Positions 560 through 2,151 of a DNA stretch of 4,005 nucleotides are shown piece by piece. Made by a program: the position numbers and the translations under genes. Positions within the stretch are counted from its first letter, which is position 1; each line of letters opens with the position of its first letter. The DNA lies in IMG/VR virus record IMGVR_UViG_2671180656_000018; one strand, given 5' to 3'. Source of the DNA: a virus. Its lineage: Duplodnaviria; Heunggongvirae; Uroviricota; Caudoviricetes. Under the pieces are notes generated by a model. The model ran no database searches and had not been told where the DNA came from. It worked only from the letters and a program-made list of their open reading frames with translations.

Positions 560-570
560 GTCCATAAGAA

Positions 571-590
571 AGCCCCTCCGGAGAGGGGCT
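571..590. other. GC-rich 8-bp-stem hairpin (inverted repeat) of unknown function
   Basis: AGCCCCTC (571-578), loop CGGA, GAGGGGCT (583-590): perfect 8-bp inverted repeat with 4-nt loop. It lies 11 nt downstream of the plus-strand terminator T-run. On the minus strand it is followed by UUCUU, a weak terminator-like tail. Confidence 0.5.
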
Positions 591-786
591 GGAGAGTGGC
601 GCTATGTGCCATTGCATGGTGCCGGGTGCCTCCCGGTGAATTCAGTACCAGCACCTGAATCCGCGATTATCCCATATACCTACTCGCTGATTGCCCCTCC
701 GCACAGGGGGATTCACCATGCCAGTTTCTTTTAACAAACTCCCCGCAAACCAGACAACAGTCAACCGCCTGAATTGTGAGACATTT

Positions 787-811
787 AAAAAAAGGCCCGC
801 AAAAGCGAGCC
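787..811 (-). terminator. Intrinsic terminator 15 nt downstream of the last tRNA on the minus strand
   Basis: Minus-strand RNA reads GGCUCGC-UUUU-GCGGGCC (7-bp stem including one G-U pair, plus 794-811) followed by U7 (plus A-run 787-793). On the plus strand the same stem has a C/A mismatch and no U-tail. Confidence 0.6.
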
Positions 812-825
812 AGGGAAAATAAGTG

Positions 826-902
826 TGGCGCGTTGTACTGGATTCGAACCAGTGACCGATTGCTTAGAAGGCAATTGCTCTGTCCGGCTGAGCTAACAAC
901 GC
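826..902 (-). tRNA. tRNA-Arg, anticodon UCU (reads AGA), canonical cloverleaf; resembles the argO/argN-type tRNAs of Stx phages
   Basis: Hand fold of the minus strand: acceptor GCGTTGT/ACAACGC, D-arm GCTC-AGCCGGACA-GAGC, anticodon stem ATTGC/GCAAT with loop CTTCTAA (anticodon TCT), variable CGGTC, T-arm ACTGG-TTCGAAT-CCAGT, discriminator G, encoded CCA at 828-826. All stems are perfectly paired. Confidence 0.85.
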
Positions 903-915
903 AGGATACAGATAA

Positions 916-992
916 TGGACCGCCTTCGGGGATCCGAACTCCGCGCAACCAGCTTCGAAAGCTGGCGCTCTTTCCTGATGAGCTAATGGCGG
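916..992 (-). tRNA. tRNA-Arg-like, anticodon UCG in my fold, with non-canonical features; possibly a weakened or pseudo-tRNA
   Basis: Hand fold: acceptor CCGCCAT/AAGGCGG with an A6/A67 mismatch, D-arm GCTC-ATCAGGAAA-GAGC, perfect anticodon stem CCAGC/GCTGG with loop TTTCGAA, T-arm CGGAG-TTCGGAT-CCCCG with an A52/C62 mismatch and G at position 58 where A is near-universal, discriminator T, encoded CCA at 918-916. Confidence 0.5.
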
Positions 993-999
993 TATGTGA

Positions 1000-1075
1000 T
1001 GGTGGCCCTTGCTGGATTTGAACCAGCGACCTGGTGATTATGAGTCGCTCGCTCTCACCACTGAGCTAAAGGGCT
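1000..1075 (-). tRNA. tRNA-Ile2-like (anticodon CAU, ileX/ileZ-type, presumably lysidine-modified to read AUA) with three A/C mismatches; possibly degenerate
   Basis: Hand fold: acceptor AGCCCTT/AAGGGCC with A1/C72 mismatch, D-arm GCTC-AGTGGTGA-GAGC, anticodon stem AGCGA/TCACC with mismatches at 27/43 and 29/41, loop CTCATAA (anticodon CAT), T-arm GCTGG-TTCAAAT-CCAGC perfect, discriminator A, encoded CCA at 1002-1000. Overall sequence resembles E. coli ileX as recalled from memory. Confidence 0.6.
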
Positions 1076-1103
1076 GGGTCAAAAAATAATAATCAGATGA
1101 AAA

Positions 1104-1817
1104 TCAATAATCAAGCCCTTGCCTGGATACATATCTGTCTGGCGGGAAGCCATAATAGCGGTGAAATACAGAAATAAAGTAGGACCAGCTTGAATAACCG
1201 CATTTTTCTGCTACAGCCTGTCCATATCCATGCCGGGAACATAACATATTGACAGCAACACGCATCCGCTCTTCCAGCAACAAGCGACTGAACATGTGCC
1301 CTTCATTTTTCAGTTTTATCTTTAACAAACTCTCACTCATATGCAGGCGTAACGCAATCGCACCAAGCGTCCAGCTTGCTGATATATCTGTCTGAATTAT
1401 CGCCCTGACTTTGGCACTTATACTGGATAAACATCCACTTAAAAATAATAATATCCGTTCATCTGATTCAAACAGCGACAGGCATGCCATCATAAGAAAC
1501 ATATCCGTGGTATCTCCGGAAAATCTCTGGCTGGTAATTAAAGCCTCAGCCAACGCAGGGTTGTTGGGTTCCAGTGACAGATAAAGCGGAACGTCAGTCA
1601 GATGAGTTCTTGTCAGCTTATGCTGAATTTCCAGATATTGACTTACTATGGAATGGTTTATATCGAAAATTTTAACTTTGCCATAATGCATAAGGAAAAG
1701 CGCCCTGATGCATTTGGTGGCCAGAACGACTGAGCCGGGCTTAAGTGACAACGTATCCTTTTCAAGAAAAATATTAATTGGGGAGCAAACCATGATAACT
1801 GAACAGACAACAACCAT
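1104..1817 (-). CDS. AraC/XylS-family transcriptional regulator (AppY/GadX-like), 237 aa
   Basis: Uninterrupted minus-strand ORF (ATG 1817..1815, TGA 1106..1104). C-terminal dual-HTH signature ...WTLGAIALRLHMSESLLKIKLKNEGHMFSRLLLEERMRVAVNMLCSRHGYGQAVAEKCGYSSWSYFISVFHRYYGFPPDRY is typical of AraC/XylS proteins. N-terminus MVVVCSVIMVCSPI and the C-terminal block resemble prophage-encoded AppY as recalled. AT-rich with rare codons (ATA, AGA, AGG seen in the first 60 codons). No clear SD before either candidate ATG (1817 or 1793). Confidence 0.8.
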   Translation of the reverse strand: MVVVCSVIMVCSPINIFLEKDTLSLKPGSVVLATKCIRALFLMHYGKVKIFDINHSIVSQYLEIQHKLTRTHLTDVPLYLSLEPNNPALAEALITSQRFSGDTTDMFLMMACLSLFESDERILLFLSGCLSSISAKVRAIIQTDISASWTLGAIALRLHMSESLLKIKLKNEGHMFSRLLLEERMRVAVNMLCSRHGYGQAVAEKCGYSSWSYFISVFHRYYGFPPDRYVSRQGLDY

Positions 1818-1911: not shown

Positions 1912-2151
1912 CTAACACCCACCAGCCGCCCATTTACCACAAATAAAAAAGCCTTCAGGACTGAAGGCGTCTGTAACAACCGAACTGATAGTCTGCCAGA
2001 CCCGCATAACCAGCTGGGTCAGTATTAACTGGCAGCGCTCGCGTGAAAGGTACGTATTCTGCGCAATCTCCCCGACCGTCGCCGGTTCGGTGACGCTTAA
2101 TTCATCAAACACAACTCTGGCGGTTTCTGTCATATCCTGCTGTTTCAGCAT
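1912..2151 (-). CDS. Hypothetical small protein (79 aa, possible HTH); coding status doubtful because an intrinsic terminator lies inside its 3' end
   Basis: ORF from the track, ATG 2151..2149, GC-normal composition. HTH-like segment PATVGEIAQNTYLSRERCQLILTQL. Only a distant GGG about 10 nt upstream as SD. The last roughly 19 codons (...AFSPEGFFICGKWAAGGC) are a read-through of the terminator hairpin and U-run at 1941-1968, so a terminated transcript would lack the stop codon. Confidence 0.3.
   Translation of the reverse strand: MLKQQDMTETARVVFDELSVTEPATVGEIAQNTYLSRERCQLILTQLVMRVWQTISSVVTDAFSPEGFFICGKWAAGGC
1941..1968 (-). terminator. Strong intrinsic terminator on the minus strand
   Basis: Minus-strand RNA: GCCUUCA-GUCC-UGAAGGC (perfect 7-bp stem, 4-nt loop; plus 1951-1968) followed by UUUUUUAUUU (plus A-run 1941-1950). 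Confidence 0.7.

Follow-up and report, generated by a model that had tools for sequence, protein, structure and literature searches.

Three tRNA genes lie side by side at positions 826–1075 of the window, a 4,005-nucleotide stretch of viral DNA (Caudoviricetes; IMG/VR record IMGVR_UViG_2671180656_000018), and two of them contain mispaired stems, which raises the questions of whether they still give working tRNAs and whether any decay has to do with a Shiga toxin missing from the same prophage. Many E. coli O157:H7 chromosomes match the window over its whole length at essentially 100%, and the trio is ileZ1-argN1-argO1 of the lambdoid prophage Sp4, a locus that is already annotated. We consider it likely that argO works, that argN is a pseudogene or crippled, and that ileZ1 is starting to decay under relaxed selection; we infer this loss of function and the relaxed selection from the identity of the locus and from the mutations, their distribution and their order, as set out below.

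The Sp4 tRNA cluster and its surroundings

An ARAGORN run, which a sequence-only reading of the window had suggested, called exactly three tRNA genes, all on the minus strand and each with an encoded CCA end, at the following positions:

1000..1075, minus strand: ileZ1, tRNA-Ile2-type, anticodon CAU, 76 nt, CCA encoded (ARAGORN, Rfam, Sakai/PGAP annotation)
916..992, minus strand: argN1, tRNA-Arg(UCG), 77 nt, CCA encoded (ARAGORN, Rfam, allele comparison)
826..902, minus strand: argO1, tRNA-Arg(UCU), 77 nt, CCA encoded, canonical cloverleaf (ARAGORN, Rfam)

In the Sakai chromosome, the counterpart (NC_002695.2 1179419-1179668) is annotated as ileZ1/argN1/argO1 within 'prophage Sp4, lambda-like phage', and it occupies the same locus of the same prophage, with the same flanking genes as in the window. 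The Sakai trio is bounded on one side by the AraC-family gene ECs_1087 and on the other by the esterase gene ECs_1088, beyond which lie pchA and the lysis genes, and the PGAP labels for the three genes are tRNA-Ile, tRNA-Arg and tRNA-Arg, none of which carries a pseudogene flag. The gene order of the window runs from Q through a CPBP protease gene, a TrmB fragment, an HTH gene, the tRNAs and the esterase gene to the lysis genes, which places the trio in the late region, after Q and ahead of nanS-p and the lysis genes. More closely, the trio has the Q-region accessory genes on one side and the nanS-p esterase gene on the other, and stx is absent.

The three genes, Ile(CAU)-Arg(UCG)-Arg(UCU), are arranged on one strand with short spacers and are homologous to the genes of phage 933W, and this match, together with the Sakai annotation, bears out the ileZ-argN-argO order that had been proposed from the letters of the window. 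Clusters of the same kind, 92–95% identical to that of the window, were found in 289 phage records, most of them Stx2 phages. In 933W (AF125520) and other Stx2 phages, the gene order is identical and the spacing nearly equal, all downstream of Q. The upstream neighbour of the trio differs, being the pR'/terminator region in 933W and an AraC-like gene in the window, and so does the ileZ-argN spacer, which measures 9 nt in 933W and Stx2a_1447 and 7 nt in the window (993–999) owing to an AT indel. A 2-bp deletion at the same ileZ-argN spacer site has been described in a clade 8 Stx2 phage (PMC2858043).

Three further elements frame the cluster, all on the same strand as the tRNA genes:

1086..1114, minus strand: promoter-like element, TTGATT, 17-nt spacer, TATTAT (consensus scan), ending about 10 nt upstream of ileZ
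787..811, minus strand: terminator-like hairpin GGCTCGCTTTTGCGGGCC with a T run behind it, immediately after argO
560-750, minus strand: STnc100-like element (Rfam, 138 bits), between the argO terminator, which it directly follows, and nanS-p

The promoter-like element extends into the 3' end of the AraC-like HTH gene, and its TATTAT -10-like motif is kept, with its distance unchanged, in phiSTEC1575-Stx2k and in 933W (annotated pT, putative tRNA promoter). The sequence of the hairpin after argO is likewise conserved in 933W and phiSTEC1575-Stx2k; in the 933W record, it is marked, upstream of stx, as a possible rho-independent terminator. Preceded by the promoter-like element and followed by the conserved terminator hairpin, the trio resembles a small transcription unit.

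In Stx phages, stxAB starts just past the argO hairpin, whereas in the window the STnc100-like element and nanS-p are found directly there, and no stxAB lies between the argO terminator and STnc100/nanS-p. Because the STnc100-like element directly follows the hairpin and stxAB is absent, the window is an stx-less version of the late-region layout of Stx phages. In 933W, the STnc100-like element lies behind stxB, and the anti-sRNA AsxR comes next; a search of the window for AsxR gave no match.

Some features of the surrounding genes were noted alongside. The nanS-p/SASA esterase ORF (337 to 1, minus strand) is shorter in the window by 36 bp in frame (12 codons) at 243–245, and one SNP adjoins this gap; both are private to the source strain of the window in comparison with Sakai, Z1835 and four other near-identical copies. 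On the other side of the cluster, a small ORF at 1912–2151 (minus strand) is annotated in RefSeq as a frameshifted TrmB-family regulator, which is intact in related prophages, and IS629/IS1203 and ISEc8 insertions are found near this fragment. The frameshifted ORF and the nearby insertions suggest that Sp4 is a degraded prophage. The tRNA module is itself modular, since other prophages pair ileZ with different tRNAs, for example with Lys(UUU)-Thr(UGU) or with Arg(UCU)-Thr(UGU) (at three IMG/VR loci, among others), and at some IMG/VR loci a divergent ileZ-like gene carries the anticodon UAU or an altered one.

Mispairs in ileZ1 and argN1

All three genes scored above the gathering score of 29 bits when searched with the Rfam tRNA model RF00005 using cmscan (argO 70.1 bits, E = 1.9e-14; ileZ 61.0 bits, 5.7e-12; argN 44.1 bits, 2.6e-7). 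Relative to the Stx-phage alleles, the score drops by about 11 bits for ileZ (61.0 against 72.5 bits for the 933W copy) and for argN (44.1 against 54.8–55.9 bits for Stx-phage copies), and it is unchanged for argO. Inspection by cmscan and position by position found standard pairs in all stems of argO only, with three non-standard pairs in ileZ and two in argN. The fold drawn by hand in the sequence-only reading is thereby confirmed in its details: the UCU gene alone is canonical, with 0 non-standard pairs flagged by cmscan, the CAU gene has the mispairs that had been listed at 1:72, 27:43 and 29:41 (A·C, A·C and C·A in cmscan), and the middle gene has A6·A67, A52·C62 and G58 (cmscan; T-loop UUCGGAU). 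Unconstrained minimum-free-energy (MFE) folding was discarded as uninformative, as none of the ileZ and argN sequences, canonical or variant, folds as a cloverleaf in its MFE structure, and stability was measured instead as the predicted energy of an imposed cloverleaf.

The last gene of the trio, argO1, has the same sequence as in Stx2a_1447 and differs by one base from that of 933W; it is intact and presumably functional. Intact products of the three genes would, as we assume, decode AUA in the case of ileZ (with C34 modified to lysidine by TilS), AGA and AGG in the case of argO, and CGA and CGG in the case of argN. Arginyl-tRNA synthetase (ArgRS) recognises A20, C35 and U/G36, and these identity elements are present both in argO (D-loop AGCCGGACA, anticodon UCU, A20, C35, U36) and in argN (D-loop AUCAGGAAA, anticodon UCG, A20, C35, G36). 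The T-loop normally contains U54 and A58, which form a reverse-Hoogsteen pair, and A58 is almost universal in elongator tRNAs; it is found in the T-loops of ileZ (UUCAAAU) and argO (UUCGAAU), and only argN (UUCGGAU) departs from it with G58.

We compared the window argN with its relatives. An alignment showed that A6-U67, G52-C62 and A58 are all intact in the argN of the Stx phages 933W and Stx2a_1447, and the window gene differs from that of 933W by A52, G58, A59 and A67 plus loop changes. Sakai argN1 has A6·A67, A52·C62 and G58 in common with the window, but G59 where the window has A59; among the near-identical copies compared, A59 is found in the window only, and this private base may be a sequencing error. 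The other three changes extend well beyond Sp4, as A52, G58 and A67 occur together in 26 of the 169 IMG/VR clusters, and intermediates with A67 alone or with G58 alone exist. Judged by this distribution, A6·A67, A52·C62 and G58 are the mark of a widespread allele class that appears defective. We looked for the allele beside stx2 and in sequenced phages and did not find it there. The best match to the window cluster in the phage collection was 95.3%, whereas a copy with the defective argN allele and a canonical ileZ would score at least 98.8%, so none of the phage-collection records carries this allele.

The predicted energy of the imposed argN cloverleaf changes from -28.3 kcal/mol for the 933W allele to -20.0 kcal/mol, which makes the window allele 8.3 kcal/mol less stable by prediction, and argN1 has most likely become a pseudogene or a tRNA that functions poorly. 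It may persist because it is located between two conserved genes. In many E. coli prophages, ileZ and argO remain intact around a middle gene that has been damaged, scrambled or lost, and records with such degenerate tRNA genes label the middle gene tRNA-OTHER or pseudo or leave it unannotated; compared with these, the window argN resembles an early stage of such degeneration, in which a recognisable cloverleaf, the UCG anticodon and the CCA end remain. A common argN pseudogene allele (at six loci, for example) keeps both halves of the acceptor stem and has a replaced anticodon arm, and its poly-G tract varies in length from about 5 to 14 between loci, a variation that suggests slippage.

The mispairs of ileZ1 do not all tell the same story. 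Its anticodon stem reads A27·C43, G28-C42, C29·A41, G30-C40, A31-U39, and alignment with the ileZ of 933W and Stx2a_1447 showed that G1-C72 and C29-G41 are paired in these phages, which have A27·C43 just as the window does. Among 109 ileZ copies, taken from IMG/VR loci that were fetched by an argO pattern without conditioning on ileZ, 96 are one identical allele, A27·C43 is the sole non-standard pair in 106, and G1 and G41 alike are present in 106. We also assembled a background sample of 120 CAU tRNA genes from diverse bacteria by scanning genome contigs with a degenerate ileZ anticodon-arm pattern, the matches being mostly chromosomal CAU tRNAs of unrelated phyla with few ileZ relatives; in this sample, 27:43 is non-Watson-Crick in about 25% of the genes, seven of them with A·C, and 119 of the 120 have G at position 41. 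Because 933W and almost every sampled copy carry A27·C43, this pair does not represent decay and is, on the comparison of alleles, a harmless trait of the family: what appears to be a mismatch is a normal feature of the ileZ tRNA.

The two other changes have a narrow distribution. A1 was found in every O157-type Sp4 copy examined, namely in the window, Sakai, Z1835, strain 133 and CEC01302, and it is absent from the near-identical ileZ copy of the non-O157 strain 2013C-4538, while A41 was found in the window and Z1835 only, among the near-identical copies compared. Accordingly placed between the two states is Sakai ileZ1, which has A1 in common with the window but, unlike it, keeps C29-G41 paired through G41. 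This distribution identifies A1 and A41 as recent G-to-A changes that are, among the alleles compared, private to the O157 Sp4 lineage, with A1 arising first and A41 after it. Sequencing error was considered as the source of A1 and A41 and ruled out, as several independent complete genomes have them. The idea that mismatches of this kind would also be present in Stx-phage tRNAs holds for A27·C43, which 933W shares, and fails for A1, A41 and the argN trio; four or five of the mismatches in the original list (ileZ A1 and A41; argN A67, A52 and G58) are absent from Stx phages and resemble decay.

By prediction, the imposed ileZ cloverleaf weakens in two steps, from -29.0 to -25.0 kcal/mol with A1 and to -19.6 kcal/mol with A1 and A41, and for both ileZ and argN the predicted gap to the best competing fold doubles relative to the Stx-phage-type alleles. 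A mismatch at 1:72 weakens EF-Tu binding. In bacterial initiator tRNAs, such a mismatch is combined with three G:C pairs at 29-31:39-41 and with A11:U24; an initiator-tRNA reading of the CAU gene was rejected, since the gene has the 1:72 mismatch only, without the three G:C pairs and with C:G at 11:24. The closest chromosomal counterpart that we compared, K-12 ileX (tRNA-Ile2, CAU), is about 89% identical to ileZ1 and has the same anticodon loop and the same C4:G69 and C5:G68 pairs; it carries G27·U43 where ileZ1 has A27·C43, and all its other pairs are standard. C4:G69 and C5:G68 are the major identity pairs for E. coli TilS (PMC11947777), and both are kept in the acceptor stem of ileZ1 (AGCCCUU/AAGGGCC), alongside the CAU anticodon. 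Substitutions in the anticodon stem impair E. coli TilS (PMC11947777), and C29·A41 is unpaired in the anticodon stem of the window ileZ1. A1 and A41 would open 1:72 and 29:41 and probably lead to less processing, lysidine formation or EF-Tu binding, and ileZ1 is probably beginning to decay in the O157 Sp4 lineage. A1 is fixed in every O157-type copy examined, and a harmless variant in a clonal lineage would look alike.

Uneven constraint on the three genes

We measured pairwise diversity among 75 unique cluster haplotypes anchored on ileZ, with the following values:

ileZ: 0.004
argO: 0.021
argN: 0.163
second spacer: 0.21
3' flank: 0.29

A canonical argN is present in 53 of the 169 IMG/VR clusters and a defective one that can still be detected in about 40, and in 47 the gene is a remnant that escapes ARAGORN; in some of these remnants, the anticodon arm is replaced and comes with a variable poly-G tract, and in others it is missing. 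In the 38 detectable argN haplotypes, 9 of the 21 stem pairs are non-standard in at least one haplotype, and a search for compensatory double changes across the same 38 haplotypes found none. Because its diversity is near the level of the spacer and many copies are outright remnants, argN is, as judged from this variation, little constrained in resident prophages; by the same measure, ileZ and argO are strongly conserved, both beside stx and in its absence. Decay is thus uneven, with argN eroding across the whole family, in most resident prophages, and the damage to ileZ private to the O157 Sp4 lineage. The general suspicion that the tRNAs of the window are decaying therefore survives for argN, where it applies family-wide, and probably for ileZ1, but neither for A27·C43 nor as a uniform process.

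A contrasting account holds that all three genes give working tRNAs and that the mismatches are tolerated polymorphisms of a divergent functional allele, in which A·C pairs act as wobble pairs and G58 is accommodated. We regard this as unlikely, though it draws on several observations: all three genes exceed the ARAGORN and Rfam thresholds, PGAP places a pseudogene flag on none of them, and neither the promoter-like nor the terminator element is damaged; A·C pairs are able to adopt a protonated wobble, and A27·C43 demonstrates that the family tolerates one; and G58 recurs on several otherwise perfect argN backgrounds, the defective argN allele being common and widely spread. For ileZ, however, the positions that changed are ones that almost never change otherwise, with G1 and G41 in 106 of the 109 sampled copies and G41 in 119 of the 120 CAU tRNAs, and a 1:72 mismatch is known in general to weaken EF-Tu binding. 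For argN, tolerance is difficult to reconcile with a diversity close to the spacer level and with the many copies that are outright remnants, and the alleles of the defective class gain further disruptive changes and 0 compensating ones. The predicted stability of the cloverleaf is also 8–9 kcal/mol lower.

The reading in which argN is dead or crippled and ileZ1 is starting to decay next to a working argO has consequences of its own. The constraint differs strongly among the three genes of a well-known Stx-phage tRNA module, and many argN copies that are called tRNA-Arg in annotations are probably dead. The copy-specific SNPs A1, A41 and A52/G58/A67 offer handles by which tRNA-sequencing reads could be assigned to individual prophages; a published tRNA-sequencing paper on EHEC (PMC13185646), examined for prophage tRNAs, does not report on them, and a search on ileZ, argN and argO found nothing relevant in the literature covered.

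Toxin, copy number and an excess of changes

Could the absence of stx have caused the decay? The tRNAs would then exist to support Shiga toxin translation and would decay here because the prophage lost stx, an explanation that we consider most improbable. The codons of the toxin do lend it some support, as AUA (47 per 1000 codons) and AGA (19 per 1000) are abundant in stx2A, but CGA and CGG, the codons that argN would read, are modest in stx2A (6 and 9 per 1000) and stx2B has none, and the AraC-like neighbour gene in the window is also rich in AUA, AGA and AGG. Across the IMG/VR clusters, argN is canonical in 10 of the 11 clusters followed by stx2, whereas the clusters without stx comprise 30 with a canonical argN and 56 in which it is defective or reduced to a remnant (Fisher p = 5e-4), an association in which the sampled loci are not phylogenetically independent; moreover, Stx phages are active phages, and activity itself may explain an intact trio. 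The two tRNAs that correspond to the rare stx2A codons, ileZ and argO, hardly vary among stx-less prophages.

Regarding the past of Sp4 itself, there is no sign that it ever carried stx, and the stx-less arrangement is the much commoner one. Sp4-like phages can carry the toxin, since phiSTEC1575-Stx2k (L311 1946-4627) has the same TrmB-HTH-tRNA module as the window, with stx2k after argO. Yet the argN of this Stx2k phage is itself damaged, with a G53·A61 mismatch at a normally conserved pair. Because ileZ and argO are nearly invariant in stx-less prophages, the tRNA module is independent of stx; the earlier proposal that tied the decay to the loss of the toxin finds no support, and ileZ/argO conservation without stx bears more widely on arguments that phage tRNAs serve the toxin.

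Toxin loss is in any case unnecessary to explain the decay of the Sp4 tRNAs. O157 chromosomes contain 6–7 places that match the tRNA cluster, a count of matching places of which the window-type and 933W-type copies were inspected. Strain F8952 combines a window-type copy with a copy that is 100% identical to that of 933W and lies beside stx2a, and in Sakai the copy in Sp5 is annotated as ileZ2/argN2/argO2. Within-genome comparison through IMG/VR pairs offered too few loci per genome to be used. Since the 6–7 clusters per chromosome include an intact 933W-type copy, relaxed selection on the Sp4 copy is plausible, and relaxed purifying selection on one copy among these clusters is the likely cause of its decay.

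Lastly, the changes in the two affected genes are more numerous than expected. In a comparison of six near-identical copies (the window and five others) over 2,974 aligned bases, 3 of the 5 SNPs fall in the 153 nt of ileZ and argN and none in argO (binomial P = 0.0013, post hoc), and all three SNPs in ileZ and argN are G-to-A on the tRNA strand. This is an excess over simple neutrality, and something beyond relaxed selection may contribute. One could invoke a mutational hot spot in transcribed, structure-forming tRNA genes, selection against surplus copies, or a non-decoding role of the argN RNA, and in a clade 8 strain, a 2.5-kb q-stx2 fragment showed 4 differences (SNPs and the 2-bp deletion), 2 of which are likewise in or next to the first tRNA-Arg gene (PMC2858043). 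We give such special causes of the excess hardly any credence, as the numbers of SNPs are very small, the test is post hoc on a window that had been selected for these very mismatches, and the flanks are mostly coding and hence constrained; an alternative function for the argN RNA has no positive support, and the deletion or scrambling of argN in many prophages speaks against a conserved second role. The related claim that the tRNA genes of the module are preferred targets of change in the young O157:H7 clone is scarcely more probable; if true, the pattern could reflect a hot spot linked to transcription or structure, or selection that silences surplus tRNA copies.
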